Position numbers and translations under genes: made by a program. Positions 1,838 through 61,110 of a stretch of 64,000 bases of DNA are shown piece by piece (positions within the stretch are counted from its first letter, which is position 1; the number at the start of each line of letters is the position of its first letter). The DNA comes from Candidatus Onstottus arcticum. GTDB lineage: Bacteria; Acidobacteriota; Blastocatellia; UBA7656. The notes beneath the pieces are model-generated. The model did no database searches. It was not told the DNA's origin and saw only the letters and a list, made by a program, of their open reading frames with translations. The stretch spans positions 84,209-148,208 of the forward strand of contig JBBPIE010000013.1 of the NCBI GenBank assembly GCA_038040485.1. Reading direction: 5' to 3'.

Positions 1838-2010
1838 TAGTTCGTAGTCCGTAGTCCGTAGTCCGTAGCTCGTAGTTCGTAGTTCGTAGTTCGTATTTCG
1901 TAGTCCGTAGTTCGAGGCTCGTAGTGCGTAGTTCGTAGTTCGTGGTTGCACTCGTTGATGAGCCACTGCGGTCTGGCCACGGACTACGGACTACGGACTA
2001 CTGACTACTC
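1838..2010. repeat. Tandem octamer array (GTAGTYCG, about 13 units) plus a downstream inverted copy (GGACTACGGACTACGGACTAC); large hairpin in the sppA-HIT intergenic region
   Basis: Direct reading of the sequence: array at 1838-1946, inverted arm at 1981-2010. Confidence 0.8.
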
Positions 2011-2938: not shown

Positions 2939-2941
2939 AAA

Positions 2942-2996
2942 CGATCAGCCACCAACGATCAGCTCATTGCTCTTGCTGATCGGTGATGGCTGATCG
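2942..2996. terminator. 22-bp-stem hairpin (CGATCAGCCACCAACGATCAGC / GCTGATCGGTGATGGCTGATCG) downstream of rpsA and upstream of sppA
   Basis: Near-perfect inverted repeat with an 11-nt loop in the 88-bp gap between the rpsA stop and the sppA start (both genes on the minus strand). Confidence 0.45.
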
Positions 2997-3026
2997 CTTC
3001 GAACCGCGATGGGCGCGAGCGGCGAA

Positions 3027-37917: not shown

Positions 37918-39057
37918 ATGGCTCACGACTCCGAAACAGTTCCAAGCTACCTGCAATCCGAAGTCGAGCGCGGCACCTTCCCCGGCGCGCAGTACGTGAT
38001 CGGAGAAGCCGGGAATATCGCCGCTGAAGGCGCCGTGGGGCTTGCGGTCGCCGAGCCCGAACGCATTCCTGCAACACTCGACACAATCTACGATCTTGCG
38101 TCACTGACCAAGCCGCTGGTGACTGCCTTGCTGATCGTGAAGTCTGCCGAGCGAGGATTGATCGACCTTAAAGCTCCAGCAGCGGAATATGTCAGCGAGC
38201 TTAATGTAGACGGCAAGCGGCACCTCACCGTCGAGCAACTGCTTACGCACGTATCGGGATTCCCGAACTGGCGGCCGATTTATCTGGAGGCCAGAGACCG
38301 CGGCGACGTCGCGGCCGCGCTGGCTCGGATTCAAACGCCGAGCCCGGCGCAGCTCCTGTATAGCGACTTGAACTATGTCCTGCTTGGCATCTTGCTCGAG
38401 CGAATCACCGGCGAGCGGCTGGACCGGCTTGGCGAGCGAGAGATATTCGAACCACTCAATTTGAAACGAACAATGTTCAATCCTCCGGGCGAGCTGAGAC
38501 GCGAGATTGCCGCGACAGAGTGCGGGCAGGTCTTCGAGCACGGAAACGCCGACGCGGATCTGGCGGCGCACGGCCAGTTCGAAGCCGGACTTCGAGTTCC
38601 CCCACCCGAAGCATACCGATGGCGCGACAAGGTGATCTGGGGCGAAGTTCACGATGGCAACGCGTATTTTATGGGCGGAGTGGCGGGACACGCAGGTTTG
38701 TTCTCAACGGCTCGCGAGGTGTTTCGGATTGCGAATCAGTTTCTTACGGGCAGCAAACTCTTCAAGCCTGAAACGCTGCCGCTTTTCCGAACGGACTTCA
38801 CACCCGGGCAGGACACGGCCAGATCCCTGGGGTGGATACTGGCGGCGACGCCTGATTGTTCGGCCGGGCCTTCGTTGCTTCCGGCTGGGATGGGTCACAA
38901 CGGCTTTACGGGCGGAAGCGTATGGATGCAGCCGGATAAACAGCGCGTGTTGATTCTTCTGACCAACCGCGTTCACCCGACAGTGCACGCAATCGATATG
39001 AAGACGATAAGACAGCGATTCAACAGCCTCGCGATTCAAGCGCTGGATCGTTTCTAG
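37918..39057 (+). CDS. Serine hydrolase of the beta-lactamase/class-C-related esterase family
   Basis: S-x-x-K motif (ASLTKPL), YSD...N region and HxG near the C-terminus. Confidence 0.75.
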   Translation: MAHDSETVPSYLQSEVERGTFPGAQYVIGEAGNIAAEGAVGLAVAEPERIPATLDTIYDLASLTKPLVTALLIVKSAERGLIDLKAPAAEYVSELNVDGKRHLTVEQLLTHVSGFPNWRPIYLEARDRGDVAAALARIQTPSPAQLLYSDLNYVLLGILLERITGERLDRLGEREIFEPLNLKRTMFNPPGELRREIAATECGQVFEHGNADADLAAHGQFEAGLRVPPPEAYRWRDKVIWGEVHDGNAYFMGGVAGHAGLFSTAREVFRIANQFLTGSKLFKPETLPLFRTDFTPGQDTARSLGWILAATPDCSAGPSLLPAGMGHNGFTGGSVWMQPDKQRVLILLTNRVHPTVHAIDMKTIRQRFNSLAIQALDRF

Positions 39058-39133
39058 TTTCTGGTTTCTAGTTTCTGGTTTCTGGTTCCGATGTTGCACC
39101 AACCAGCAACCAGAAACCAGAAACTAGAAACCG
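39046..39133. repeat. Hairpin with a roughly 26-bp stem built from tandem GTTTCTRG heptamers, overlapping the stop codon of the upstream gene
   Basis: gtttctagtttctggtttctagtttctggtttctggtt ... aaccagaaaccagaaactagaaaccgg; same unit family as the element at 49520-49621. Confidence 0.8.
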
Positions 39134-42971: not shown

Positions 42972-45900
42972 CTATTGCCCGCTGGGAAGCGTGGGCCACA
43001 ACCTCACCGAGCCGTCTTTCGTGCTGGTAATCATTATGCGATTGTCTGGCGAAAACGCGATCGAATCAAGCGCCTGTTTTGCAGGCTCACTATAGAGCGT
43101 GACCAGCCTGCGATAAGACGCGGTACTCCACAACGTGACCTGTCCGCCGATGTCTCCCGTGGCGAGGACTTTGGAGTCCGCGGAAAACGCCATGCAGGAG
43201 ATGGAACTCTGAAGACCGCCGAGCCAGGCGAGCGGCCCGCCAGGTTCAAGATGTTCCATATCCCACAATTCTACAGATGGGCCGAGCTTCGTATTGCCGG
43301 ATATCGCAAGGAATCTGCCGTCGAGCGAAAAAGTTGCGAGTAATGTGGCGCCTCCTCCCACAGCGAAAGGGCCCTTGAATTGTCTCGGTGCGCCCTGTGC
43401 GTCCGGAGCATTCCTTCCCGAAGCCTTCACCAGAGTCATAATGAGCTGTCGAGAGCGAGCATCCCACATCTCAGCGGTCAATCCATAATCTTCGCTTGAC
43501 CCTATGACAACCATTTTGGAGCTGTCGGGCGAAAAGACTAGCGAGTGAACCGAGAGGATATGAGCATTGTCCAGGGTCGATGCTGTTTTAGAAGCGATAT
43601 CCCACAACTCCACTTTTCCCTTAGTATCAGCGTCGTCAAAACAGGCGAGTGTCTTTCCATCAGGCGAAAACTCCATACCAGATACCTTGCCGCTGTCAGT
43701 CGGAGCTTTAAGAACGAAGGGCTGATCCTGCAAATCTTCGTTCCACAACTCCAAGCCCCATCCGGTGTGGACGCTGTTGTCGTTTTCTTTCGTTTCGATC
43801 CAGTTAAGCGCGACTACGTTCTTTCCATCAGGTGAGACTACGAGCTCCCTAACAGCTTTTCGGCCCTTCTCAGGCGGATTAACGTTGAAAGTGGCCGTCA
43901 ACTTTAGCGGCTGAGTTTGCCATAGTTTTATCGTGCTGGCGCTGCTCAGAATCGCGACAAATCGTCCGCCAGGAGAGTTGCCGACAGTGGGATAGGGTTG
44001 CGCAAACTCAGCGGAAAGTTTCAATTCTTGCCGCGACTCAGCGTCCCACATCCTGACTTGGGCTGTTTCCCTCGTGCCGTCGGTTATGAAGCGTCCCGTG
44101 TCATAGCGAGCGAGCATCAAAACCGACTTACTGTCCGGTAAGATGAAGGGGGTTTTGATGCCTCTATCGCCGCTTTCGACGGCGACGGAATCTCGGGGAT
44201 TGCGCGTGTTCCAGAGTCTCACCTTTCCGGCATCGTTTGCTGCCAACTTCTCTCCGTCGGGAGAAAAGGTTAACGAGGTTATCCAGCCCTCTTGTCCCAA
44301 GAGCGGAGCTATCAACTCAGGAGACTCTCGCTCCCCGGGTCGTGGCGCTTTATATAGCCGCAATGTGTTATGGCCGCCAATGGCAAACTTGTTTCCCTGA
44401 GGAGCGAAAGCCATCACGGTAGGCGAGAATTCCGGAGCGGCAAGAGCATCCGCGAATCCTACCGCGGCCAACGGATCCTTCATCTTTGTGTCAAACACTA
44501 TGAAGCTGTTTCCGATATTAGTCCCCAGGATGATTGTTTTACCATCGGGTGAAAACCTCACTGACTCCCCACCCCCTGGGCTATCCAGGGAAAGCCGTCC
44601 CGAATCGACGTCGAAGAGCCGCAGCGTGCCGTCCCAGCCGACTGTAGCGAGCGTCTTTTCATCGGGCGACAGCGCAAGGTCAATTACGCTTCCTGTGACG
44701 CCAGCAATCTCCATCCGTTTCTTCGACGTTGCAAGATTCCACGCCACAACGCGACCCTCATTGCTGATCTCTCTCGCGCTGCCCGTAAAGAGCGTCTTCC
44801 CGTCGCGCGAGAAGACAAGCGAGGTGATCCGCAAACCATCTCCCGGAAGCACCGCAGGGGCTTCGGTTGACGTGAGTTTGTGCAACATCACCCGCGAGTC
44901 GCCGCTGCAGGCCAGAATGCTGCCGTCGGGCGAGACCGCCAAAACGTTAACAGGAACACCTCCGGTTGGAAGAGTTCTCAACTCTTGCATGGTTGAAGCG
45001 TCCCAGAGCTTGACCGCATGGTCGCCTGCGGTTGCCAGATACTTTCCGTCGGGAGAAAAAACCACGTCTCTTACAATTCCATCGCCGCAGTCCAGCGTTC
45101 CCGCTTCCCTGTGATAAAGCCAGTTTAGATAGCCCCACTCGAAGCTGCGCAAATCCTCCTGATTGGTCGAAGGATCTTCAAGCAACTCCCGCGCGTGCTG
45201 GACGTTCTCGTCGTAGTAAGCCTCCTGCGCGAGATTGATATTCGCCGCGTAAAGCAACTTGCGCGACCGCTCGCCTTCTGCCCTGGCCCTGGCTTCTCCT
45301 TCTTCGGCTCTCTTTTTTTCTCTCCCTGCTTCTGCCGCCGCCGATTCAGCCTTCTCTTCATTATCCTTTGCGATGCGCGCCTGGTAGCCGGCCTGCTCCT
45401 CTGCAAGACCCGCTGCTACTGAGTTCTGATAAGCAGTATCGGCCGCCTTCTCAGCGTTATTCCGCTCCTTATCGGCCCTGTCTCGCTGCTCATTGGCTTC
45501 CACCAAAGCGGCCTCAAGTTGCTGCTTTGATTCATTCGCCTCGACTCTTTTGCTGTTTGCGAAAACAAGCGCACCGAGCGATAAAAGGAACGCGAGAGCG
45601 AAAATGAGAGCTGTCAATCGCGTTCGCTTAATCTCTTTCCTGCGCTGCGCTTCACGGTCGCGCGCTTCTTTGTCGCGCGCCTCGCGGCTTTCGTCCAGGA
45701 AATTCATCGCCGCTTCAAACTCCGGATAATAACGACGCGCCCACGTCTTGTTAGGCTTGCTTCCATCGCGCCAATCCAGCGCAAGCTGCAAATCAGGGTC
45801 GCGATATAATCCCGCTTCTCCCTTCTCGTGCAAGACCGATGTTTCGGCCAGTCGGCGATAGATGCGGGCGGACCGCGCTTCTTCATCGACCCACGCTTTC

Positions 45901-47120
45901 AATCGTTCCCAGTTGCGAATCAAGCTCTCGTGCGAAATGTCTACAAGCGAGTCCACGTTGAGCGGAGTCCCGGCGGGCGGCATAAGAAACGATCTGTCTT
46001 CACGGCGAAAGACTTCGATGACGGCGATCACTTCCGCTTCGCTTGCCTCAGCCAGCGCGCAAAGCTCCTTCAATTCAATCGGGCGGCGTATCTCCCGGTT
46101 GTCCGACCCCTTCTCGGTGAGACCTTTGAATATCTTTTCGGCAATCGCGCCGCTCCGCTCGCCCTTCAGATCGTTGTAAGCTTCATCGGCATGACGAGAA
46201 AGCGCCGCGCTCATCTCTCCTATCGCCTCGTAGTGCTGAAGGTCGATAGGCTCTCTGTCTTGATTCTCTTCCTTCCATCTATTCCACGTTCGCATGAGCG
46301 CGTGCTGAAGGATGGGCAATTGATCGGGATTGTCTCCCATGTCATTCAGCAGCCGATTGACCAGGCGCGGCGCGATGCCGGCTCCGCAGACGGCAGCCGG
46401 TCCCGTGATGGCTTCTCGCCGCTGATCGCGCGTGAGCCGCGGAATCAAGTACTGTCCTTCGTTGATGGCTTCGGGCAGGTCCCAGAACAACGAACAGTCG
46501 CCCAGAAAATCAGAGCGCATTGTTAGCACTACATAAATCGGAACGTCTCTTTGGCGCGCTGCTTCCAGCAACAGCTTAACGAAGGCTGCCGCTTCGTTCT
46601 GGTATCGCTCGCTTGCGGCGACCTGCGCAAAGCGAAACAACTCTTCAAACTGGTCAACTACGACGAGCAGGTGTTCGTGAAGACCGATCTGCGCGAGGCG
46701 AACAGCTTCGACAAGGCCGAGGCTGCCGCGTCGCAAGGTTGACTCGATCATCGTCGCCTGAACTGGCGCGGTTCCGCCGCCTGGAGAGCCGAACAGGCCC
46801 GACTCGTCGATTGCGCGGGCGAGGTTGCCAATCGGATCGTTGCTCGGCCTCAGGATTGCGATTCGCCAATCCGAATCCGCGCTCGTCATGAACCCGCCAA
46901 ACAGCGCGGGCAGCAATCCCGCGCGCACGAGCGATGACTTGCCGCTTCCCGAAGTGCCAACCACAGCCATAAAGCGCGTGCTGACGAGCTTGCGAAGCAA
47001 CTGCTCGCTTTGGCCATCGCGCCCGAAATACAACAGGCTTTCTTGAAACTCGAATGGCCGCAAGCCGGGAAAGGGATTAGAAGGGGTTTCCGTTTGCGTC
47101 ATCATGTAGTCGGCTATCAT
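42972..47120 (-). CDS. nSTAND-type P-loop NTPase with an internal TM helix, a long coiled-coil and a C-terminal WD40 beta-propeller (at least 14 repeats)
   Basis: N-terminal NPFPGLRPFEFQESLLYFGRDGQ motif and Walker A GTSGSGKSSLVRAG; hydrophobic helix LTALIFALAFLLSLGALVFA flanked by R/K/E-rich segments; multiple WD40 repeats (SPDGK.LA..G.D..v.LWD). Confidence 0.8.
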   Translation of the reverse strand: MIADYMMTQTETPSNPFPGLRPFEFQESLLYFGRDGQSEQLLRKLVSTRFMAVVGTSGSGKSSLVRAGLLPALFGGFMTSADSDWRIAILRPSNDPIGNLARAIDESGLFGSPGGGTAPVQATMIESTLRRGSLGLVEAVRLAQIGLHEHLLVVVDQFEELFRFAQVAASERYQNEAAAFVKLLLEAARQRDVPIYVVLTMRSDFLGDCSLFWDLPEAINEGQYLIPRLTRDQRREAITGPAAVCGAGIAPRLVNRLLNDMGDNPDQLPILQHALMRTWNRWKEENQDREPIDLQHYEAIGEMSAALSRHADEAYNDLKGERSGAIAEKIFKGLTEKGSDNREIRRPIELKELCALAEASEAEVIAVIEVFRREDRSFLMPPAGTPLNVDSLVDISHESLIRNWERLKAWVDEEARSARIYRRLAETSVLHEKGEAGLYRDPDLQLALDWRDGSKPNKTWARRYYPEFEAAMNFLDESREARDKEARDREAQRRKEIKRTRLTALIFALAFLLSLGALVFANSKRVEANESKQQLEAALVEANEQRDRADKERNNAEKAADTAYQNSVAAGLAEEQAGYQARIAKDNEEKAESAAAEAGREKKRAEEGEARARAEGERSRKLLYAANINLAQEAYYDENVQHARELLEDPSTNQEDLRSFEWGYLNWLYHREAGTLDCGDGIVRDVVFSPDGKYLATAGDHAVKLWDASTMQELRTLPTGGVPVNVLAVSPDGSILACSGDSRVMLHKLTSTEAPAVLPGDGLRITSLVFSRDGKTLFTGSAREISNEGRVVAWNLATSKKRMEIAGVTGSVIDLALSPDEKTLATVGWDGTLRLFDVDSGRLSLDSPGGGESVRFSPDGKTIILGTNIGNSFIVFDTKMKDPLAAVGFADALAAPEFSPTVMAFAPQGNKFAIGGHNTLRLYKAPRPGERESPELIAPLLGQEGWITSLTFSPDGEKLAANDAGKVRLWNTRNPRDSVAVESGDRGIKTPFILPDSKSVLMLARYDTGRFITDGTRETAQVRMWDAESRQELKLSAEFAQPYPTVGNSPGGRFVAILSSASTIKLWQTQPLKLTATFNVNPPEKGRKAVRELVVSPDGKNVVALNWIETKENDNSVHTGWGLELWNEDLQDQPFVLKAPTDSGKVSGMEFSPDGKTLACFDDADTKGKVELWDIASKTASTLDNAHILSVHSLVFSPDSSKMVVIGSSEDYGLTAEMWDARSRQLIMTLVKASGRNAPDAQGAPRQFKGPFAVGGGATLLATFSLDGRFLAISGNTKLGPSVELWDMEHLEPGGPLAWLGGLQSSISCMAFSADSKVLATGDIGGQVTLWSTASYRRLVTLYSEPAKQALDSIAFSPDNRIMITSTKDGSVRLWPTLPSGQ

Positions 47121-47122
47121 CG

Positions 47123-48685
47123 CTACGCTCCCTTCGCTTTCTTGACTCGTTCGAGAAAGGGCTCCAACTGCTCAGGCGAGAACGCCTCGTAGTTCTTGAT
47201 CACGAGTGAATCGTGATCCCTGACCCGCTCTTTGGAATCGGTTGGCGGACCGCTTATGTAGATCGCTTTCACAGCTAGCGGCTCCGCGCGGCCATATCCC
47301 GCGATCTTGAGCAATTCGCGCTGCTTCATGCGCAGCCAGAGCTCGTTGGCGCGCCCGTAAAAGATCATCACCGCGTCGCACATCAACAGGTTGTCTTTGT
47401 GGTCCTGGATTATCTGGGTTTCATCGCCTTCGGTCGCGGGCAAAGTCACATCTACGCCTTTGTCAAAAAGATAGTCTTCGATGGGTTTGACCGCATCCAT
47501 ATCCTGTCTGTCACAGATCAAATACACGGACGCGGTGTGTCCATTGCTGGCCGCCGACGCGCTGGAGTCAGGTATGGCCTGGCGGTTCAGCTTCTCTTGA
47601 ATAACGGTCTTCAGATCTTCAAGCTTTGTTTCGAGCAGGTCTGTGGCTTTCTGACTGCTGAGTCCCAATCGCAACTTATTGACGAATCTTTGCTGAGACT
47701 CGTCTTGCGCCTTAAGCCCAACCGGCATCCAGATTATTCGCTGCAACCCGTCGCGACAGTTGGCAGACAACTCGTGCTGCAACTCGATCATTGAACGGCT
47801 CTCGCCTTCAGCGATGACGCCGTAGTGCTCGCCGATCAGATGCACCGCAAGCGTACTGCGGCTGAGGTAATTGCCAACCTCTTGCTCGAATGCCGCCCCG
47901 ATCAAGGGCAAGGCTTTGTCGGGAAGCACCTCGTAGCCGCGTAGCTGCAAATCGCGTTTGATCGTGTCCCGTTGTTCTGTAAGGTCGGATGAAGTCTCCG
48001 CCAGGTAGATAGTTGCCTCTGAAGGCGAGGCGGGCGATTCTGCTGGTCCGGAACCGCTGCGCAAAGTCTCAATCAACTGTTTGATGTCATAGGCCAGGTC
48101 GTCCAGCTTTTCCCAATAGCGAATGTCCCGAGCCGGAACGACTTCCGAATTGAACTCGTGAGCACGGTCGCGCATCTGGTCGTACTCGTAGAACTCATAC
48201 CCGAGCGCGCCTTGTAGAACCGGCGGGTGTTGCCCGCGGGAGATGTGGGTCTTCACGACTTTGAAGATTCGCAACTTGTCGCCGACGCGAAGCCCGGCGT
48301 TCATTTCCGCGCGCCGCGAAAATTCATCCAGCTCTCTCAGGCACCATTCGGATTTGACGTACCGAGGCGAAAGGATGGAGACGAGAATCGCCGACTGTCC
48401 GACGCGGTCAATGAGCGTGTCGGCAAAGATATCGTTGCCTTGCAATTTGCGGTCGCGCCAGATTCGCGCCTCCTCGCCAAGCAGTTGAGCAAGACGGACC
48501 CTGAGCCTTTCGTGAAGCGCCTCGACCCATCCCGTCAGTCCCTTGTCGAGAGGCTGATTATCGATGTGCGCGTAGCTGATAAAGATGTCGTGCTTGAAGG
48601 TTGGCATAGCTTCCACATCATCCTTGAAGACATATCGCCGGACTGGACGCCGTAAGATCGCGTTGTCGAGAAACTGCATCCGCAC
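47123..48685 (-). CDS. TIR-domain protein followed by two further TIR/SLOG-like alpha/beta domains; putative NAD+-targeting effector
   Basis: HDIFISYAHIDN...SILVSILSPRYVKSEWCLREL TIR signature at the N-terminus; two downstream segments with a TIR-like beta-alpha pattern (ATIYLAETSSD..., ASVYLICDRQD...); 2-bp gap to the downstream NTPase gene. Confidence 0.75.
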   Translation of the reverse strand: MRMQFLDNAILRRPVRRYVFKDDVEAMPTFKHDIFISYAHIDNQPLDKGLTGWVEALHERLRVRLAQLLGEEARIWRDRKLQGNDIFADTLIDRVGQSAILVSILSPRYVKSEWCLRELDEFSRRAEMNAGLRVGDKLRIFKVVKTHISRGQHPPVLQGALGYEFYEYDQMRDRAHEFNSEVVPARDIRYWEKLDDLAYDIKQLIETLRSGSGPAESPASPSEATIYLAETSSDLTEQRDTIKRDLQLRGYEVLPDKALPLIGAAFEQEVGNYLSRSTLAVHLIGEHYGVIAEGESRSMIELQHELSANCRDGLQRIIWMPVGLKAQDESQQRFVNKLRLGLSSQKATDLLETKLEDLKTVIQEKLNRQAIPDSSASAASNGHTASVYLICDRQDMDAVKPIEDYLFDKGVDVTLPATEGDETQIIQDHKDNLLMCDAVMIFYGRANELWLRMKQRELLKIAGYGRAEPLAVKAIYISGPPTDSKERVRDHDSLVIKNYEAFSPEQLEPFLERVKKAKGA

Positions 48686-48934: not shown

Positions 48935-48967
48935 GTCTGTATAATCTGGCGTCGCGCCACGCGGTCT

Positions 48968-49519
48968 GTGCGACCGAGCATCATCACGTTCAATCAAGCA
49001 ATGCTCTCTCTGACTAAACTCATTCTCTTGTCGGTCGCGGTCATCGCAGTCGGCGGCTTCTTTCTGTTACGCGCGACCGCGAGACCCGAGGCGCCTCGCC
49101 AACCAATCAACTTCGATCATTGGCAGCACGTTTCATCAAAGGAAGGACCTGAGCTCGACTGCACATTCTGTCACGAACACGTGGACAAGTCTGCGCATGC
49201 GACGATCCCGAATGCTGAAACCTGCATGACCTGTCACGAGACGATCAAGCCCGACAGCGCCGAAGTGCAAAAGCTCGCGGCATTCTCAAATCGCAAAGAA
49301 CAACCGCCGTGGCAGCGCGTCTACTGGTTTGAGCGCGACGCTAACGTGTTCTTCTCGCACAAGGCGCACAACCGAGCCGGTGTTGAATGCTCATCTTGTC
49401 ACGGCGAAGTAGGCACATCCCATCGAGTGGGACGTGAGGTAAATCAAACAATGGGCTGGTGCATCGATTGCCACCGCCGGCGAGCCGCAAGCGTGGATTG
49501 CTACGTGTGTCATAGATAG
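48968..49519 (+). CDS. Membrane-anchored pentaheme c-type cytochrome (ActA/NrfB-like)
   Basis: Five CxxCH motifs (CTFCH, CMTCH, CSSCH, CIDCH, CYVCH); N-terminal TM helix. Confidence 0.85.
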   Translation: MRPSIITFNQAMLSLTKLILLSVAVIAVGGFFLLRATARPEAPRQPINFDHWQHVSSKEGPELDCTFCHEHVDKSAHATIPNAETCMTCHETIKPDSAEVQKLAAFSNRKEQPPWQRVYWFERDANVFFSHKAHNRAGVECSSCHGEVGTSHRVGREVNQTMGWCIDCHRRRAASVDCYVCHR

Positions 49520-49621
49520 GTTTCTAGTTTGTGGTTTCTGGTTTCTGGTTCCACAGAACAGGTCAAGCGGAGCCGAACGAAAAACCACAAACCAGAAACT
49601 AGAAACCAGAAACTAGAAACC
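49520..49621. repeat. Hairpin with a roughly 30-bp stem built from tandem GTTTCTRG heptamers, between the first and second genes of the ACIII-like operon
   Basis: gtttctagtttgtggtttctggtttctggttcc ... accacaaaccagaaactagaaaccagaaactagaaacc; it ends 5 nt before the ATG at 49626. Confidence 0.8.
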
Positions 49622-49625
49622 GCAT

Positions 49626-51812
49626 ATGAAGCGACGCGAGTTTATAATCCTAAGCAGCGTAGGAGCTACGAGCGCTTCGCTGCTCTCCGCTTGCGGACAT
49701 CCCGAGGAGAAACTAATCCCGGCTCTCATCCCTGACGACCAATACGTGCCGGGGATCGACTACTGGAAGGCTTCAACTTGCGGGATGTGCCCGGCCGGCT
49801 GCGGGATCATCGTTCGAACTCGCGAGCATAAGGCAAACAAGATCGAAGGCAACCCGCTTCATCCGGTCAATCGCGGAGCGTTGTGCGCGCGGGGACAAGC
49901 GGGGCTCGAAGTGCTTTACAACCCCGACCGCATCAAAGGCCCGATGAAGCGCGTCGGCGAGCGCGGCGAAGGCAAGTGGCAAGAGATCAGTTGGGAACAA
50001 GCAATCGGGACGCTGACAGACATCCTGCGCGAGGCAGGCGATCTTAACCGAGCTTTGTTCATAACCAGCGAGGCTGAGGGAGTGACTGCGCGGGTGGCCA
50101 GCCGATTGATGCAGGCTTGCGGGCAGACCTTTGTGGCTGGGAATCCCCAGCAGACAGAACTGCGGGGCGTTTATCCTGACCTCCTGCGCGGTGTAGTGAA
50201 GCACGGCGAGGCTTCACCCGACATCGCAAACGCTACCTATCTGCTTTCATTCGGCGCGCGCTTTCTGGAAACGTGGAAATCGCCGGTCATGCACTCGCTT
50301 GCTTATGGCGCGTTTCGAACCAGTCACGGCAAGGCGCGCGGAAGATTTGTTCACGTTGAGCCGCGGATGTCGCTAACCGCAGCCAACGCGGACGAATGGA
50401 TTCCCGCGGCGCCCGGCTCCGAAGCGCTCCTCGCGCTGGCGATGGTTCAGGTAATCGTTCGAGAAGGTCTGAACAAGGTGGCTGTATCCGACGATTCGCG
50501 AAGGATGCTCGAGGAATTCTCGCCAGAGAATAATGCCGCAATGATCGATGTTCCGGCCGAGAGAATCATTCGGGTCGCCCGCGCATTTGCCGGGGCGCAA
50601 CGGCCTCTGGCGATCGGAGACTTGCCATCTCCTTCCGACGCCGCGGTTCATCTGCTTAACACGATCGTCGAAAACTTAAACAAACCAGGAGGAGTACTGC
50701 TCTTCGACGTTGGAACCAGATCACCTGACCTCCTTGAGACTCAGGCCAACGCGTCGATCCCCGATGAGCAGCTTAAGAAGCAACCCCCTCGCGATAGCGT
50801 TGATGTCATAAGCCAGTTCTTGCAAACAGCAAAACAGCCCTATCAAATAGTCATGAGCCACGGCTTCAATCCAATGTTGGCGAGAAATGGGCGCGAAGAA
50901 CTACTAGCTGCGCGTTTCATCGTCGGCTTTTCGTCATTCATGGACGAGACGAGTGAAGTGGCCGATCTCATTCTCCCAGATCACAGCTACCTCGAGCGCT
51001 GGGACATACACACGTCGAATGGTCCGGATGGGCGAAAGGTTTTGTCGTTGACCCAACCCGTACTCGAGCCTCAACTCAATACCCGGCACACAGCCGATGT
51101 CTTGCTCTCGCTTGCGCGAGAGATCGGCGGCAAAGTCGGCGAAGCGCTGCCGTTCGAGTCCGCGAAGAACATGATTGAAAAGGGCGCGGGTGACCGCTTG
51201 AAGGATTTCGGCGGCGAGAAGGCTGATGCGGCGTGGCTTGAGCTGACCGAGAAAGGACTGGTTTCGGCCGCGCTGCCACCTGCGAAACCCGAAGCTCCTG
51301 AACAAGGCCCTATCTCGCTCGACTCATTTTTTCTAGGTCTGATCCGCCGGAGTTCCAAATCGGCGAGTAGCGTCGAGTACCCGTTGACTCTACTCGTTTA
51401 CGAACATGCCACACTCGGCGACGGATCAGCAGCCAACTTGCCTTCGATCCAGGAACTACCTGATCCACTGACTTCGGCTATGTGGGGGAGTTGGGTTGAG
51501 ATCAACCCGAAGACCGCCGCAATGATGGGCATTGCTGACGGCGATCTCGTTGAAGTGACAACCGGCACCGGCTCGGTTCGCGTTCCGGCGCTTCTGTACC
51601 CAGGGATCAGGCCCGATTGCGTCGCGCTGCCAACTGGTCAGGGCCATTCGAGCTATGGGAGATACGCGCGTGGTCGCGGGGTGGACGCCGGTGTCCTCCT
51701 TCGCAATAACGGAAAGGGTCCTGTGAGATCGAGACTCACCAAGATCGGAGGTCGCGCTCAGCTCATTCGGTTTGGCACTGAGTTGATGGAACACATGGAA
51801 TCGAAGCGCTAA
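49626..51812 (+). CDS. Molybdopterin-oxidoreductase-family (MopB-like) subunit with a Tat-type signal and lipobox (ActB1/PsrA-like)
   Basis: KRREFII twin-arginine motif, LLSAC lipobox, N-terminal 4Fe-4S Cys cluster CGMCPAGCG...C; 728 aa. Confidence 0.8.
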   Translation: MKRREFIILSSVGATSASLLSACGHPEEKLIPALIPDDQYVPGIDYWKASTCGMCPAGCGIIVRTREHKANKIEGNPLHPVNRGALCARGQAGLEVLYNPDRIKGPMKRVGERGEGKWQEISWEQAIGTLTDILREAGDLNRALFITSEAEGVTARVASRLMQACGQTFVAGNPQQTELRGVYPDLLRGVVKHGEASPDIANATYLLSFGARFLETWKSPVMHSLAYGAFRTSHGKARGRFVHVEPRMSLTAANADEWIPAAPGSEALLALAMVQVIVREGLNKVAVSDDSRRMLEEFSPENNAAMIDVPAERIIRVARAFAGAQRPLAIGDLPSPSDAAVHLLNTIVENLNKPGGVLLFDVGTRSPDLLETQANASIPDEQLKKQPPRDSVDVISQFLQTAKQPYQIVMSHGFNPMLARNGREELLAARFIVGFSSFMDETSEVADLILPDHSYLERWDIHTSNGPDGRKVLSLTQPVLEPQLNTRHTADVLLSLAREIGGKVGEALPFESAKNMIEKGAGDRLKDFGGEKADAAWLELTEKGLVSAALPPAKPEAPEQGPISLDSFFLGLIRRSSKSASSVEYPLTLLVYEHATLGDGSAANLPSIQELPDPLTSAMWGSWVEINPKTAAMMGIADGDLVEVTTGTGSVRVPALLYPGIRPDCVALPTGQGHSSYGRYARGRGVDAGVLLRNNGKGPVRSRLTKIGGRAQLIRFGTELMEHMESKR

Positions 51813-51853: not shown

Positions 51854-52558
51854 ATGACTGAATCTCAAAACAAGAAGCCTCAATGGGCGATGGTGATCGA
51901 CCTCGATCGCTGCACCGGATGTGAAGCTTGCGTTGTGGCTTGCCGTGTCGAGAACAACATCCCAACCGTCGGACCTGAAGAAGCCGCGAAGGGACGCTCG
52001 ATCAACTGGATTCGAGTCGAGCGCTACTTCGAAGGCGAATACCCCGATGTGAAGGCCAGGTTCATGCCGGTCTTGTGTCAGCACTGCGAGGAAGCTCCGT
52101 GCGAGCCGGTGTGTCCGGTCTACGCGACGTATCACACCGACGAAGGTTTGAACGCGCAGGTCTACAACCGCTGTGTCGGGACTCGGTACTGCGCGAACAA
52201 CTGCCCGTACACCGTTCGCTTCTTCAACTTCTTCGATCCGGTCTGGGACGCGCCGCTGGAAAAGGCTTTGAACCCGGAAGTGTCGGTGCGAACCGGCGGT
52301 GTGATGGAGAAGTGCACCTTCTGCATTCAACGCATTCGCAAGGGCGAAGACAAAGCCAAAGACGAAGGCCGCGAGGTGCGCGACGGCGACGTCACGCCGG
52401 CGTGTGTTCAGACCTGCGAGACGAAGGCTATGTACTTCGGCAACATCGCCGATCCGGAGAGCGAAGTTTCGAAGCTGTCGAAGAGCAATCGAGCGACACG
52501 GTTGCTCGAAGAGCTGGGAACAAAACCGCGCGTGATCTATTTGAACAAAGGCGATTGA
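51854..52558 (+). CDS. 4Fe-4S ferredoxin-type iron-sulfur subunit (ActB2/PsrB/NrfC-like)
   Basis: Four Cys clusters (CTGCEACVVAC, CQHCEEAPCEPVCP, CVGTRYCANNCP, CTFC...C). Confidence 0.85.
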   Translation: MTESQNKKPQWAMVIDLDRCTGCEACVVACRVENNIPTVGPEEAAKGRSINWIRVERYFEGEYPDVKARFMPVLCQHCEEAPCEPVCPVYATYHTDEGLNAQVYNRCVGTRYCANNCPYTVRFFNFFDPVWDAPLEKALNPEVSVRTGGVMEKCTFCIQRIRKGEDKAKDEGREVRDGDVTPACVQTCETKAMYFGNIADPESEVSKLSKSNRATRLLEELGTKPRVIYLNKGD

Positions 52559-52730: not shown

Positions 52731-54434
52731 ATGCCAAGTATAAGGAGAAACGTAATGCGCGCGCGCAATCGCATCACCATCTTCATCGCAATCCTTTTTG
52801 TAGCAGCAACCGGCGCGCATGCCCAATCCGGCGCGCAAGATCAAAAAGCAACGTGCTCCGTCACGGGCACAGTCACTAAAAGTGGCAAGCCTGCGCGCGG
52901 CGTCAAGGTTGTAGCGGTGCGAAATTCTGCTTACGAGCCTTTGGCAGTTGATCTCACTGACGCAGACGGTCATTACCATTTGAAAGGTATCCCACCGGGT
53001 CCTTGCGAGATTACGCTCGACGCGCCGGCCTCCGCAATCAAGAACCAAAACGAGTCCCTCATGCTGGACGAAGGGGAAAACATCGAAGGCATTGACCTGG
53101 AGATAAGGCCGGGCGGCGTCATCACAGGGCGCGTCACTGAAGCTAACGGGCGACCGATGATTGATGTGACCGTAGGTCTCCCTCCTTCCTGGAAAGCCAA
53201 GACAGATGATCGCGGCATGTATCGCGCTTATGGATTGCCGCCAGGTCGCTACAAAGTGAGCGTAGCTAGAAACCCCATGGATGGCAGCCAAGTTGATTTT
53301 CCGAAGACTTACTATCCGAGCGTCACCAATGAATCGAAGGCAGAAACCGTTGAAGTCGCGACGGGCGCTGAGGTGACAAACATTGATATAAAGGTCAAAC
53401 GACCTTCCAAAGATATCACGAAGACCTATGCAGTCACCGGGCGCATCGTTAATGCGGAAACCGGAAGCCCACTTCCTAAAGTCGATCTCATTTGCCAGGA
53501 GAAACCCAATCTTGAAGATAACCAGGACGTAGATTTCGCGGAATTGTTTAGTTGTGTCGCGGAAAGTGATTCCAAAGGCGAGTTTCGCATGGACGGTCTT
53601 CCTCCTGGAAAATACAAGATCGAAGCGTATACCAAAAGTGATTCTCCGTGGTATGGCAAGGAGTTAGCGTTTGAAATCTCAAACGCAGATATTAAAGGAC
53701 TGGAAATAAGAGTTCATCGCGCCGGAAGCATCGGCGGCGTTGTAGTCCTCGAAGGCGCAAACGATCCGGCAACCATTGCCAGGTTATCGCCCTTGAGAAT
53801 CAGCGCAAGCCCGGCGGACGCGTTCACCGAGACTTCAAACAAAGACGGATCATTTCGCCTCACAGGAGTCAAGCCGGGCAGTCATAGTATTCGTATCCAC
53901 TCAGTCAGTACGAGCGAGGACTTAGAGATCATCGGAATAGAGCGTGACGGAGTTCGGCTCGACAAAGTTGAGGAGATAGTGGAAGGGATTGAAGTCCGAG
54001 ACAGGGAGATTGAAGTCGGACCCGGCGAGAACGTTTCAGGCGTGCGGGTAGTGGTCGCTTGGTATCAAGGCGTTGTGCGCGGGCAAATCAAAATCGAAGG
54101 CGGCACGCTGCCTAAAGGCGCTCGCCTGAACTTGTGGGCTATTCCTGCCAATAAGCTCAAACAAGATGGCTCCTGGCCATACAATAGGACGTTGGCTTTT
54201 TTAAGCCAGATGAGAACGGGGAGCATGGATGCGCGCGGGCGCTTTGTAATTGAGCGTCTGCCGCCAGGTGAGTATGGAATAATCCTCGATGCCTACCTCA
54301 CTCCGCTAAAGAACGATGTCGTTATTGAGCCATCATTGACTCTCACAAGAATCATTTCACTAACCGAAGGGGCGGAGGTTGAAATAACGCTCGTCCTTGA
54401 TTTGAGCAAGAAGCCGCAGGAGAAGCAACAATGA
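52731..54434 (+). CDS. Secreted protein with multiple carboxypeptidase-regulatory-like (CarboxypepD_reg) beta-sandwich domains
   Basis: Signal peptide; repeated (V/I)xGxVxxxxGxPxxxVxV...DGxYx..GLPPGxY pattern. Confidence 0.65.
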   Translation: MPSIRRNVMRARNRITIFIAILFVAATGAHAQSGAQDQKATCSVTGTVTKSGKPARGVKVVAVRNSAYEPLAVDLTDADGHYHLKGIPPGPCEITLDAPASAIKNQNESLMLDEGENIEGIDLEIRPGGVITGRVTEANGRPMIDVTVGLPPSWKAKTDDRGMYRAYGLPPGRYKVSVARNPMDGSQVDFPKTYYPSVTNESKAETVEVATGAEVTNIDIKVKRPSKDITKTYAVTGRIVNAETGSPLPKVDLICQEKPNLEDNQDVDFAELFSCVAESDSKGEFRMDGLPPGKYKIEAYTKSDSPWYGKELAFEISNADIKGLEIRVHRAGSIGGVVVLEGANDPATIARLSPLRISASPADAFTETSNKDGSFRLTGVKPGSHSIRIHSVSTSEDLEIIGIERDGVRLDKVEEIVEGIEVRDREIEVGPGENVSGVRVVVAWYQGVVRGQIKIEGGTLPKGARLNLWAIPANKLKQDGSWPYNRTLAFLSQMRTGSMDARGRFVIERLPPGEYGIILDAYLTPLKNDVVIEPSLTLTRIISLTEGAEVEITLVLDLSKKPQEKQQ

Positions 54435-56260
54435 CTTTGAAGCTCGCGCGGCAAAGCCCGAACATGCTTTTTTCCGGCGTTGAGTCTTGCCGCGCCCTAC
54501 CAGCGTTGTGCTCCTTGCTATTGATGCTCGCTGCCTTCATTGATACAGGGCAATCGCAGGTTTTGCCTGCTCGAAGAAGAGACGCTTCAAATCAACCGTC
54601 TCAAAAACGCGCAGGCTCGATAAGCGGGCGCGTCACGGATGAATCCGGTCGGCCATTTCCTAACGTCGTCGTTAATGTGAGGCCAGTCAATGGAACCATT
54701 GAAGAATACAAACACGTTGGCACCGATGACGAAGGCAGCTTTCAACTGAACGGCCTGCCGTCAAAGTCCTATTTTGTGTGGTGCTCCGCAGCAGGTTACG
54801 TCGAAGATAACAAAGATGGATCGAGCGCCTATCACGTCACAGGCGACTTCGTAACGCTCAAGCTGCGCAAAGGCGGAGTAATAACAGGCGCAGTTACAAA
54901 TTCGTCAGGCGAGCCACTGGGAAAAGCGAAAGTAGTCGCCATTCGGGTGCGCGACTCGGAACGTCGTGCCCTTCGTTTTACCTACGGCGTTGAAACAGAT
55001 GATCGCGGCATCTACAGAATCTACGGGCTCGGATCAGGCTCTTACCTGCTGATGGTCAATCAAATCGGTGAATACCAAGATCAAGACCTCCGCAATAAGA
55101 TTCCCATTTATTACCCTTCGTCCGGGCGCGACGATGCGCAAGAGGTAAAACTGAGTCTCGGCGAAGAAGCGAGCGGGATAAACATAACCTATCGAAGCGA
55201 GCGGGGGCATATCGTCAGCGGCAAATGTTCCGGCGCTGCTCAGGGAGGATCTACTGAAGGAGGTTCTTTGAGGCTCATACACGCTAAGAGCGGGGCAATT
55301 CGGACCACCAGTTGGGCGGGTAACCAAGAGAATCCCTCTTTCGCTTTTTATGGCGTGCCGGATGGAGACTATTATTTGATAGCTCAAGACCGTTCCTGGG
55401 ACCCGGAGGCGGCCTCGCAACCACGGCTGATCTCGGTTAAGGGCACCGATGTGACCGGAATTGAACTCAAGCTTCTTCCGTTTGGCTCGATTGCCGGGCA
55501 TATCGTCATGGAAGTCTCGCCGAAAGCGAAGCGCAAACCGGAGTGCAAACCCGCGCGAAAAGCATCGGTTGAAGAAACTGTTGTTAAAGGCTTGCGCAAT
55601 GACAAAGCCGCTCCCAAAGATCGTTTCGCTTTATTTTTCGATTCTGTTACATCGGGCGCCCCGGACGAAAGAGGCGATTTCTTTCTCGAAAGCCTTCCTC
55701 CGGGACAGTATCGCCTGAAAATGAAGCTAGTCAACGAAGACCTTTATGCGCGCGCCGTGACAATGCCTAAGACCGGCAGACAGCCCGGTGATGCGGCGCG
55801 AAATGACATCGCGCTCAAATCGGGAGAGCACGTAAAGGGAGTAATCATCAACGTTGCGGAAGGCGCGGCCAGCATTCGTGGGCGCGTCGCTGCTTCGGAT
55901 GAAAAAGCGAAATTGCCCGCACGGCTCCGCGCGCACCTTGTGCCTTTCGAGCGTGAGAACGCCGGCAATGCCGAGCGATTCGCCGAAACTGACACCGAGA
56001 GCGATGGCGCATTCGCTTTCGCAAATATCGCTCCGGGTCGCTACTGGCTGCTTGTTCGCCCGATTGCTGACAATGAAAGACAGGAAGCGACCTGGCCGGT
56101 AGCGTGGGACGTGGCGGGCCGCTCTGCGCTTCGCCGCGAGGCAGAGGCTGCAAACATTGCGGTTGATTTGCAGCGCTGTGCGCGCATCACTAATTACCTG
56201 ATGCGCTATCGGCCATCGCTTACGGTGACCAGGCCTGCATCCGGAAAGACAAAGCAATAA
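54431..56260 (+). CDS. Secreted protein with multiple CarboxypepD_reg-like domains (paralog of the preceding gene)
   Basis: Same repeat pattern (ISGRVTDESGRPFPNVVV, GAVTNSSGEPLGKAKV, YRIYGLGSGSY); 4-bp overlap with the upstream gene. Confidence 0.65.
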   Translation: MTLKLARQSPNMLFSGVESCRALPALCSLLLMLAAFIDTGQSQVLPARRRDASNQPSQKRAGSISGRVTDESGRPFPNVVVNVRPVNGTIEEYKHVGTDDEGSFQLNGLPSKSYFVWCSAAGYVEDNKDGSSAYHVTGDFVTLKLRKGGVITGAVTNSSGEPLGKAKVVAIRVRDSERRALRFTYGVETDDRGIYRIYGLGSGSYLLMVNQIGEYQDQDLRNKIPIYYPSSGRDDAQEVKLSLGEEASGINITYRSERGHIVSGKCSGAAQGGSTEGGSLRLIHAKSGAIRTTSWAGNQENPSFAFYGVPDGDYYLIAQDRSWDPEAASQPRLISVKGTDVTGIELKLLPFGSIAGHIVMEVSPKAKRKPECKPARKASVEETVVKGLRNDKAAPKDRFALFFDSVTSGAPDERGDFFLESLPPGQYRLKMKLVNEDLYARAVTMPKTGRQPGDAARNDIALKSGEHVKGVIINVAEGAASIRGRVAASDEKAKLPARLRAHLVPFERENAGNAERFAETDTESDGAFAFANIAPGRYWLLVRPIADNERQEATWPVAWDVAGRSALRREAEAANIAVDLQRCARITNYLMRYRPSLTVTRPASGKTKQ

Positions 56261-57632: not shown

Positions 57633-58091
57633 ATGGCTGAACCAAAGATCGCGATTTTTGATACACGAGACGAAGCGCTTGCGGCGTTGCGCGAGCTCCG
57701 GCGCGAGGGCGTGCCCGGCTCGTCGATCACGGTTATGTCTTCGGAGCCGTTGCATCTTGAAACGGACGGGGGGCCGAAGAGCCGGATCGCGGGCTTCGCG
57801 ATCGGCGGCGGATTGATCGGAGCGGCGTTCGCGCTGGTGCTTACGATCTGGACATCACGGCAGGTTGGTCTTGTTACAGGTGGAATGCCGATCGTGTCGC
57901 CTTGGGCGTTTGGAATAATTGTCTTCGAGTTAACGGCTCTCGGCGCAATACTTGCCACCTTTGCACGGATGATCTTCGAGGCCGGATTGCTGAGACGAAA
58001 AGCCTCAACCGATTACGATGATGCGGTAGCGAACGGAAAGGTCGTTGTGTCAATCGCGAGGGGAGATGAAACCACAGATAAACACAGATGA
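57633..58091 (+). CDS. DUF3341-family membrane protein (ActD-like)
   Basis: N-terminal cytoplasmic alpha/beta segment followed by two TM helices with the WTSRQVGLVTGGMPIVSPWAF pattern typical of DUF3341. Confidence 0.65.
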   Translation: MAEPKIAIFDTRDEALAALRELRREGVPGSSITVMSSEPLHLETDGGPKSRIAGFAIGGGLIGAAFALVLTIWTSRQVGLVTGGMPIVSPWAFGIIVFELTALGAILATFARMIFEAGLLRRKASTDYDDAVANGKVVVSIARGDETTDKHR

Positions 58092-58164
58092 ACACGAATG
58101 GAAGTGGTTGAGGTACGTTCTCCTCCCTCTCTTCATCGGTGTTTATCTGTGTTCATCTGTGGTT
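58069..58164. repeat. Hairpin whose arms are tandem decamers (ACAGATAAAC / ACAGATGAAC), between convergent actD-like and acyl-CoA dehydrogenase genes, overlapping the actD stop
   Basis: aaccacagataaacacagatgaacac ... gtgtttatctgtgttcatctgtggtt. Confidence 0.75.
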
Positions 58165-58173
58165 GCATTTCTG

Positions 58174-60841: not shown

Positions 60842-61110
60842 CATACCCACCTCGTGAGAGGTGGGTTCCTGATGCTGTGGCCTACAGAACGTCGCAGCGT
60901 TGCCCTCGCATTTCTGCATACCCACCTCGTGAGAGGTGGGTTCCTGATGCAGTGGCCTTCGAGCGAACCCTCTTTGATCTGTGGCGTCTCATCGTAGGCT
61001 GGAGCATCACCGACCCACCTCTCACGAGGTGGGTATGCAAACAGCGTAGGCGGACGTGCTCTTCTGTAGGCTCGAGCATCACCCACCCACCTCTCACGAG
61101 GTGGGTATGC
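60842..61110. repeat. About 270-bp nested palindrome: two direct and two inverted copies of a 34-bp unit (CATACCCACCTCGTGAGAGGTGGGTTCCTGATGC) with partially palindromic spacers; MITE-like
   Basis: Copies at 60842-60875 (+), 60916-60950 (+), 61004-61038 (inverted) and 61076-61110 (inverted). Confidence 0.8.

Follow-up and report, generated by a model that had tools for sequence, protein, structure and literature searches.

What is a long RNA hairpin doing between two genes of a respiratory operon? The question is raised by a stretch of 64,000 nucleotides from Candidatus Onstottus arcticum (here called the window), in which the spacer between a pentaheme cytochrome c gene and the gene of a MopB-family subunit is filled by a hairpin whose arms are inverted arrays of a tandem heptanucleotide. 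We find that this hairpin is one copy of a common, fast-changing palindromic repeat family in soil Acidobacteria and no purpose-built switch. As for its role, we give an even chance to the view that this repeat, which resembles repetitive extragenic palindromes (REPs) and miniature inverted-repeat transposable elements, forms an RNA stem that would mark a point of processing or of stability between the two cistrons, RNase III being the probable nuclease, and would mask the leader of the MopB gene.

A tandem-heptamer hairpin between the cytochrome and MopB genes

The stop codon of the cytochrome gene (TAG, 49517-49519) is followed by GTTTCTAGTTTGTGGTTTCTGGTTTCTGGTT, a 39-nt loop, AACCAGAAACTAGAAACCAGAAACTAGAAACC, the tetranucleotide GCAT and the MopB start codon (ATG at 49626), and the stem ends 4 nt ahead of that ATG. 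The hairpin consists of the following parts.

49519..49550, + strand: 5' arm, 4.6 tandem GGTTTCT-type heptamers; pairing begins at the last base (G) of the TAG stop
49551..49589, + strand: loop of 39 nt, the 3' end of which (49582-49589) already lies within the AAACCAG heptamer array
49590..49621, + strand: 3' arm of AGAAACC-type heptamers, which with the end of the loop make up an array (49582-49621) of 5.7 copies, more than in the 5' arm
49622..49625, + strand: GCAT spacer of 4 nt that separates the stem from the MopB ATG, without a Shine-Dalgarno (SD) motif

The two arms, 32 nt each, are 94% complementary. Their tandem heptamers (GGTTTCT with AGAAACC) pair into a stem of 32 bp, the imperfections of which, on reading both arms, are one G.G mismatch and one G.U pair. 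The RNA fold of 49505-49640 has an energy of -58.5 kcal/mol, and 200 dinucleotide shuffles of the same segment average -27.6 +/- 3.5 kcal/mol (z = -8.8), with 0/200 reaching the energy of the hairpin. Tandem Repeats Finder assigns period 7 to both arms. With arms of this repetitive build, more than one pairing register is possible and no unique alignment exists. A motif of two heptamers occurs 14 times in the 64-kb window against 0.25 expected occurrences, and all 14 sit within this hairpin or a sister copy at 39050-39132.

The earlier note on this DNA had described a strong repeat hairpin that leaves no room for a conventional ribosome-binding site, and on both points the present analysis agrees with it, since no SD-like motif precedes the ATG and a GGAG-like motif is absent from the 20 nt before it. 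The ATG itself is correctly placed because the residues M1 K2 R3 R4 are invariant in 20 homologues. Rfam 15 at gathering threshold gave no match in the whole window, and a permissive scan of 49400-49750 returned only sub-threshold, miRNA-precursor-like matches on both strands, as with any long hairpin. A scan of 48.5-52.8 kb for sigma-70 promoters found nothing at the hairpin on the + strand.

Besides the sister copy, the 64 kb contain at least four hairpins made of other repeat units, and further palindromic repeats as well.

39050..39132, + strand: sister copy of the GGTTTCT-heptamer family, with a beta-lactamase-family gene on one side and a TonB-C gene on the other
1838..2008, no strand assigned: like-built hairpin of another heptamer (TAGTTCG/GTAGTCC versus ACGGACT)
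2939-2999: GCTGATC-heptamer hairpin between the ribosomal protein S1 and peptidase S49 genes, abutting the S49 start codon
31658..31808, no strand assigned: like-built hairpin of TTGTCCC-type heptamers, filling the spacer between convergent genes
58063..58171, no strand assigned: period-10 (ACAGATGAAC-type) hairpin at the end of the ActD gene

In the sister copy, the TAG stop codon of the upstream gene lies inside the first heptamer and the next open reading frame (ORF) begins 5-14 nt past the stem. The period-10 hairpin overlaps the 3'-terminal 28 nt of the ActD gene and takes up the whole spacer to a convergent acyl-CoA dehydrogenase gene. At 60842-61110, four palindromic repeats of ~48 nt (CATACCCACCTCGTGAGAGGTGGGT...) stand in alternating orientation in a divergent intergenic region of 586 nt.

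Counted on rough gene calls, 17 of the 43 intergenic gaps of the window (~40%) fold strongly (<= -35 kcal/mol), whether co-directional, convergent or divergent. On the same gene calls, an SD-like motif precedes 18 of 44 genes (~40%) and is missing from the other ~60%, so that the lack of one before the MopB gene is not unusual. Because a sister copy and hairpins of other heptamers are present, because ~40% of the gaps fold strongly, and because only ~40% of the genes have an SD-like motif, the hairpin is not a dedicated, sequence-conserved regulator. The suggestion that a dedicated structure here sets subunit stoichiometry is not supported in that form, given this generic repeat class and the changes of repeat family between loci with ~95% identical flanks, which are described below.

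Occupancy and turnover of the junction in related operons

The hairpin lies, as had been proposed, inside an operon. Five genes run in one direction in the order pentaheme cytochrome c, MopB, iron-sulfur subunit (FeS), NrfD and ActD, an order like that of alternative complex III (ACIII) and the quinone reductase complex (Qrc).

49001..49519, + strand: pentaheme cytochrome c (ActA/QrcA-like), with five CxxCH motifs and Pfam Cytochrome_C7 and c3 matches
49626..51812, + strand: MopB-family subunit (ActB1/QrcB-like), with a twin-arginine (Tat) signal (MKRREF) and the Cys motif of the Fe4S4 domain
51854..52558, + strand: 4Fe-4S dicluster subunit (ActB2/QrcC-like); the protein is 94-96% identical to the orthologues in loci L001-L004
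56269-57627, + strand: NrfD-type membrane subunit, downstream part of the cytochrome-MopB operon
57633-58091, + strand: ActD, downstream part of the cytochrome-MopB operon

We compared 61 orthologous junctions from four contigs (reached via MopB homologues, several named relatives among which are Blastocatellia) and 56 metagenome loci. When a fold of <= -25 kcal/mol is taken as a strong hairpin, 79% of 56 orthologous cytochrome-to-MopB spacers carry one, compared with 57% of the FeS-to-NrfD spacers, 22% of the MopB-to-FeS spacers and 0% of the NrfD-to-ActD spacers, which are typically 5 nt long. The cytochrome-to-MopB junction is the most heavily occupied of the operon, though not unique in being occupied.

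At least four unrelated repeat families occupy this junction. Hairpins of the GGTTTCT heptamer are found at 19 of the 61 junctions and those of a GGTTCNG-type heptamer at 12; a GTAG-headed REP doublet is present at seven (L127, L137, L149, L151, L160, L165 and L169, of which an automatic classifier labelled 6) and a period-10 ACAGATGAAC hairpin at five (L128, L150, L157, L166 and L179, of which the classifier labelled 4). The remaining hairpins are of other types, one of them enclosing a small ORF. Junctions free of a hairpin have a spacer of 9-67 nt, often with GGAG. In a neighbour-joining tree of the MopB N-terminus, these hairpin-free spacers form the basal branches, and all other loci fall into one crown clade, in which a hairpin is present at 44 of 46 junctions and the families lie scattered among one another. 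GGAG-like motifs are carried by the hairpin-free basal spacers and are missing from the hairpin-bearing ones.

The stem is placed alike in all families. From stop codon to stem the median distance is 4.5 nt (interquartile range (IQR) 1-6), from stem to ATG it is 7 nt (IQR 6-14), and the summed unpaired flanks have a median of 13 nt, matching the 12-nt spacer of L001. In L001 the stem is lost, and because its spacer, TAGAAACCAGAATTTATG, retains 1.5 heptamers of the 3' arm, we regard it as a deletion derivative. A spacer of 246 nt in L179 (L179:1516-1761) repeats the final ~30 nt of the cytochrome gene with its stop codon and also has a duplicated hairpin half, as expected of a tandem duplication that took in both the gene end and the element.

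Different families also stand at loci that are ~95% identical over 240 nt of flanking coding sequence (third-codon-position identity 0.8-0.9). Such swaps are seen between L137 (REP doublets) and L163 (GGTTTCT), between L132 (GGTTCNG) and L133 (GGTTTCT), and between L146 (GGTTCNG) and L150 (period-10 repeat), and the presence of a hairpin distinguishes L145 (GGTTCNG) from L001 (none). Smaller changes, by whole heptamers with loop and flanks shared, distinguish L004 from L170 and L142 from L176. We considered vertical inheritance of the GGTTTCT hairpin in the window and in L002-L004 and judged it unproven. The window is far more distant from all of the compared swap loci (third-position identity ~0.63), and since families swap even at ~95% flank identity, a GGTTTCT hairpin common to the window and L002-L004 need not be due to inheritance.

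The RNA of the sense strand folds better than that of the antisense strand at 34 of 45 junction hairpins, by a mean of 3 kcal/mol (Wilcoxon p = 0.003, a statistic that ignores relatedness among the loci), and a tally of the per-locus values gives the same direction in each family. As signs of RNA-level constraint, the stem geometry and the strand bias are suggestive only. Taken with the occupancy of 44/46, the like placement of the stem and the sense-fold bias lend some favour to a predicted RNA-level role at this junction, be it in processing, stability or occlusion.

Readings of the stem

We propose that the hairpin is a resident palindromic repeat, its two arms being inverted arrays of a tandem 7-nt unit, and that heptamer-armed elements of this kind would become established in the short stop-to-start or stop-to-stop spacers of Acidobacteria, alter their heptamer copy number and be replaced quickly. 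The hairpin is presumably transcribed because it lies inside the cytochrome c-MopB-FeS-NrfD-ActD transcription unit, for which co-transcription is likewise presumed. The transcript would then form a 32-bp helix bracketing the whole spacer and acting as post-transcriptional punctuation. The long double-stranded stem would be a substrate of RNase III, and cleavage would detach the cytochrome segment, with part of the stem left at its 3' end, from the MopB-FeS segment and would free the A/C-rich, SD-less MopB leader that the stem may otherwise sequester; a ribosome terminating on the cytochrome gene could melt the stem and likewise free the leader. Near-perfect RNA helices of 32 bp are typical substrates of the double-strand-specific RNase III. 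In Coxiella, RNase III cuts the intervening sequence (IVS) of the ribosomal RNA (rRNA) at the first of its tandem heptamers (PMC4990558). In H. influenzae, the enzyme cuts a long hairpin with an (ATCTTTC)n arm in a 5' untranslated region (5'-UTR), and expression of the downstream hmw1A rises (PMC12721329). Because of these two precedents and the type of helix, we think that cleavage or blockage at the stem is the most likely course.

Several points weigh against this proposal. The effects on cleavage, stability and translation are argued from analogy. The base rate of hairpins is high, so that the occupancy of the junction may reflect an insertion preference and not a benefit, family turnover at ~5% flank divergence is typical of selfish elements, and L001 manages without a stem. 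The bias towards the sense strand is modest, and kinship is not corrected for; G.U pairs show no asymmetry between sense and antisense folds (124 vs 115), and the FeS-to-NrfD hairpins, put to the same test of minimum free energy, show no sense bias (7 vs 7). Finally, in the window, tblastn with two proteins of the PF05635 family, whose genes lie between such arrays elsewhere (see below), found no PF05635 gene and no trace of its ORF in the loop.

Much of this evidence is shared by the view that the hairpin is a neutral or selfish passenger, that is, a mobile or slippage-made palindrome that is tolerated there because insertions elsewhere hit coding sequence, and that has no selected effect. 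Such a passenger would account for the 17 strongly folding gaps among 43, for elements in all gene orientations, for families that differ between loci with ~95% identical flanks, for the stem lost in L001, for the 57% occupancy of the FeS-to-NrfD junction with no sense bias, and for G.U counts without a strand bias. Given the base rate and the turnover, an inert passenger is quite possible, although we doubt it: 44 of 46 junctions are occupied at a target of ~12 nt, well over the other junctions of the operon and the base rate of the window, the sense strand folds better in 34/45 cases consistently across families, and the GGAG-like motifs of the hairpin-free basal spacers are found in none of the hairpin-bearing ones.

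Translational coupling without cleavage is a close rival of cleavage or blockage at the stem. Here the stem would hide the SD-less MopB leader while stop and start codons stand effectively ~13 nt apart, and a ribosome that reaches the cytochrome stop codon would have to open the lowest base pairs of the stem, which would free the AUG, so that MopB would be made only when and where the cytochrome is translated. The distances from stop to stem (median 4.5 nt) and from stem to ATG (median 7 nt), held in four unrelated families, would suit such a gate, as would summed flanks (median 13 nt) that match the 12-nt spacer of the stem-less L001 and a downstream NrfD-to-ActD spacer that is a classic coupled one of 5 nt. 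The split between hairpin-bearing spacers without SD and short hairpin-free spacers with GGAG also fits. We downgraded this last contrast as evidence for coupling because it coincides with the deepest split of the tree, and may thus reflect lineage, and because most genes of the window (~60%) have no SD motif anyway. The spacer-filling geometry is also seen between convergent genes, where coupling is impossible, and we consider such a gate without cleavage unlikely.

With a partial terminator or attenuator, or with a barrier to 3' exonucleases as in the malE-malF REP or the puf operon, the cytochrome part of the mRNA would outnumber the downstream segments. A very stable stem directly past a stop codon is what such a device would need, and similar hairpins stand between convergent genes, where terminators are expected. 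The REP sequences of E. coli stabilise upstream mRNA segments. According to Liang, Rudd and Deutscher (2015), REPs within ~15 nt of a stop codon reportedly lower expression of the upstream gene. RNase R and PNPase target REP-containing mRNAs (PMC12320835). A canonical intrinsic terminator is excluded at this hairpin, as the 32-bp stem is A/U-rich, unlike the short G+C-rich ones of intrinsic terminators, no U-tract follows its 3' side (GCATATGAAG comes next, without a T-run), and a terminator scan of 48.5-52.8 kb gave no + strand site at 49519-49630. A partial terminator such as the earlier note put forward would have to be of an unconventional kind. Known ACIII complexes have fixed subunit ratios and give no obvious reason for an excess of the cytochrome, and we hold a terminator or barrier to be improbable.

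Least probable is a role at the DNA level or in protein binding, in which the arrays would bind a cold-shock-type protein with an oligonucleotide-binding (OB) fold, one heptamer per monomer (B. subtilis CspB binds T-rich heptamers with one protein per heptamer, according to work quoted in PMC4679880), or a PF05635 protein, or would form a cruciform; although the GGTTTCT unit recurs across acidobacterial classes and by PF05635 genes in four other phyla, sequence-specific recognition cannot explain the occupancy of a junction that tolerates unrelated REP doublets, period-10 repeats and GGTTCNG hairpins at the same place.

PF05635 elements, known repeats and genomic setting

A genome scan for GTTTCTRGTTTCTRGTTTCT (three perfect GTTTCT units) returned at least 120 loci, from which the taxon counts that follow are no census. 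Among the matches listed, about a third are from Acidobacteriota, where they are mostly hairpins; several genomes give more than one locus, e.g. the metagenome-assembled genomes (MAGs) behind L008/L073/L107 and L046/L081, and none of the matches is an orthologous cytochrome-to-MopB junction. Still among the matches listed, GGTTTCT hairpins come from Thermoanaerobaculia, Blastocatellia/Pyrinomonadaceae and Terriglobia; 12 are in co-directional, 4 in convergent and 5 in divergent settings. The GGTTTCT arm comes first in Blastocatellia and Terriglobia, and the AGAAACC arm in Thermoanaerobaculia. The reversed order, with the A/C-rich arm first, is found in L008, L010, L012, L044, L057, L073, L100, L106 and L107, of which L012 is an unclassified Acidobacteriota MAG and the others are Thermoanaerobaculia; strand inversion cannot convert one order into the other.

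At six loci, the inverted heptamer arrays enclose a gene of the PF05635 family (23S rRNA intervening-sequence protein; TIGR02436 'four helix bundle').

L014:2100-2560: PF05635 gene, Planctomycetota, GGTTTCT arms
L022:3393-3900: PF05635 gene, Clostridia, GGTTTCT arms
L071:493-986: PF05635 gene, Flavobacterium, inverted heptamer arrays
L086:5131-5516: PF05635 gene, Terriglobia, GGTTTCT arms
L120:1307-1803: PF05635 gene, Pyrinomonadaceae, GGTTTCT arms, between two co-directional genes
L143:940-1413: PF05635 gene at the cytochrome-to-MopB junction itself, inverted heptamer arrays

In an independent plasmid sample drawn by the PF05635 protein alone (loci L181-L188, eight genes examined), heptamer-type arrays lie on both sides of seven of the eight genes. 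The arrays are inverted at five (two Nostoc plasmids, Riemerella, Calothrix and Geminocystis) and direct on both sides at two (Pseudanabaena and Gemmatirosa), and the eighth gene has a weak array on one side only. In total, 11 PF05635 genes have inverted heptamer arrays and others have direct or one-sided ones; the association extends over at least six phyla, and the 7-nt unit differs between copies. A clean control is provided by 34 kb of the Riemerella plasmid, where the sole period-7 array is the one beside the PF05635 gene, and 25 kb of the Nostoc plasmid also contain an ORF-less hairpin with the same unit as the PF05635-flanking array. These elements are often in operon spacers, namely sufA|sufB (Riemerella), nrdB|nrdA (Nostoc) and cas6|cas4 (Pseudanabaena). 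The searchable literature yielded neither this association outside the Coxiella IVS nor heptamer hairpins in Acidobacteria.

From its shared architecture, the junction hairpin appears to be an ORF-less relative of the PF05635 elements, and descent is suggested by that architecture only. A tentative extension of this idea, which we rate as doubtful, is that heptamer-armed palindromes are cross-phylum 'mRNA intervening sequences', excised by RNase III as rRNA IVSs are, which in one acidobacterial clade would normally separate the cytochrome and MopB cistrons. The full form would be a PF05635 (IVS-protein/Avd-like) gene between inverted arrays and the short form a bare hairpin, and both would lodge in the stop-to-start spacers of operons, with the ACIII/Qrc operon, the three plasmid spacers just named and the co-directional pair in the Pyrinomonadaceae MAG as possible examples.

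The closest known counterparts can be set beside the junction hairpin in turn. The REPs, bacterial interspersed mosaic elements (BIMEs) and REPINs (REP doublets forming hairpins) of Proteobacteria are palindromes with GTAG or CGTC heads (PMC3733652, PMC3116915). Like them, the junction element is a short, multi-copy intergenic palindrome (two copies in 64 kb) of a kind often found inside operons beside stop codons, co-transcribed, thought to affect mRNA stability and the translation of a neighbour, and turned over fast between relatives; genuine GTAG-headed doublets even occupy the same junction in seven loci of relatives. It differs in that its arms are tandem 7-nt arrays with more than one possible pairing register and with lengths that shift by entire heptamers, starting with GGTTTCTAG and finishing with CTAGAAACC, with neither a GTAG nor a CGTC head. 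No RAYT (Y1) transposase was seen in these 64 kb of a 162-kb contig, where no search aimed at one was made. The hmw1A 5'-UTR hairpin (PMC12721329) shares a transcribed arm of tandem 7-nt repeats directly upstream of an ORF and a variable repeat number, which for the junction hairpin also varies between close relatives. In hmw1A, however, the repeat makes up just one arm and a G-rich stretch the other, the unit is ATCTTTC, the hairpin belongs to the 5'-UTR of a phase-variable adhesin gene and not to an intercistronic spacer, and RNase III cleavage is known there whereas it is only predicted here.

The rRNA IVSs with a PF05635/S23p ORF (Coxiella, Leptospira; PMC4990558) likewise have a stem of flanking inverted sequence with tandem heptamers at the RNase III site before the ORF, and exist in ORF-containing and ORF-less forms. 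Inverted tandem-heptamer arrays bracket the element in the window too, but it sits in an mRNA spacer and not in rRNA helix 25 or 45, its 39-nt loop holds no ORF, and its excision is only proposed. The short tandemly repeated repetitive (STRR) sequences of Cyanobacteria and the TAACTGA arrays of Beggiatoaceae (PMC4679880) share the 7-nt unit, the intergenic site, an end a few nt before a start codon (4 nt before the MopB ATG in the case of the 3' array) and a suggested translational role. They are mostly direct arrays without a complementary partner, whereas the junction element consists of two inverted arrays that pair as a hairpin. Arrays that do resemble the TAACTGA type were seen at the MopB-to-FeS junction of ~15 related loci (within L128-L149), where a single-arm (C/T)TGAACC array, without a complementary arm, ends a few nt before the FeS ATG. 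Correia elements (also termed Neisseria miniature insertion sequences, NEMIS) and enterobacterial repetitive intergenic consensus (ERIC) sequences are also ~100 nt long with inverted ends, lie between genes or inside operons, and fold within the mRNA, with effects on how it is processed and how stable it is. De Gregorio and co-workers reportedly observed processing of co-transcribed copies by RNase III or RNase E. They differ in having terminal inverted repeats that are unique and non-tandem, and a target-site duplication; the junction hairpin was found to have neither.

The operon and its surroundings show further features. The best NCBIfam matches of the subunits are QrcA/B/C, all under the equivalog cut-offs, and the MopB protein has Fe4S4, molybdopterin and dinucleotide-binding domains, with the Fe4S4 domain retained; on these matches, 'ACIII/Qrc-like operon' is a fair label. 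An identical MopB protein is on record from an Acidobacteriota MAG. The cytochrome ORF opens at GTG 48968 in the ORF listing, its likely start is ATG 49001, and its orthologues have 166-176 aa. A TATAAT hexamer at 48941-48946, ~55 nt upstream of this probable start, is a possible operon promoter, on which a consensus scan requiring both hexamers made no call. Between the FeS and NrfD genes, the window contains two genes with CarboxypepD_reg domains (52731-56260; 567 + 609 aa). The syntenic operons of L001-L004 run from cytochrome to ActD without these two genes, which therefore look like an insertion into the operon. Divergent from the operon, on the - strand at 42972-48685, is the gene of a 1382-aa nSTAND1 NTPase with WD40 repeats; it lies directly downstream of the gene of a 520-aa TIR-domain protein, with a gap of 2 nt, and the two are a candidate signalling or defence pair. 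In L001, L003 and L004, a divergent ribosomal protein S1 gene is directly upstream of the cytochrome gene, followed in L003 and L004 by a peptidase S49 gene. The window has its S1 and S49 genes at 2012-5006, 44 kb from the cytochrome gene. The surroundings of the operon have therefore undergone rearrangement.

The most interesting by-products of this analysis are the persistence of a hairpin at one junction through changes of repeat family, and the association of PF05635 genes with heptamer arrays. The latter, spanning at least six phyla, offers a lead on the origin and spread of heptanucleotide repeats such as STRR-like arrays and on the role of 'four helix bundle'/IVS proteins outside rRNA. 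If the hairpin is inert, it carries a caution that a striking intra-operonic hairpin is the rule in such genomes and no signal. Should the stem prove to be processed or to gate translation, the operon would be an example of a respiratory one that relies on any palindromic repeat that has come to fill its spacer. Structure would then be conserved without conserved sequence, which would affect the annotation of intergenic repeats and the prediction of operon expression in uncultured soil Acidobacteria.

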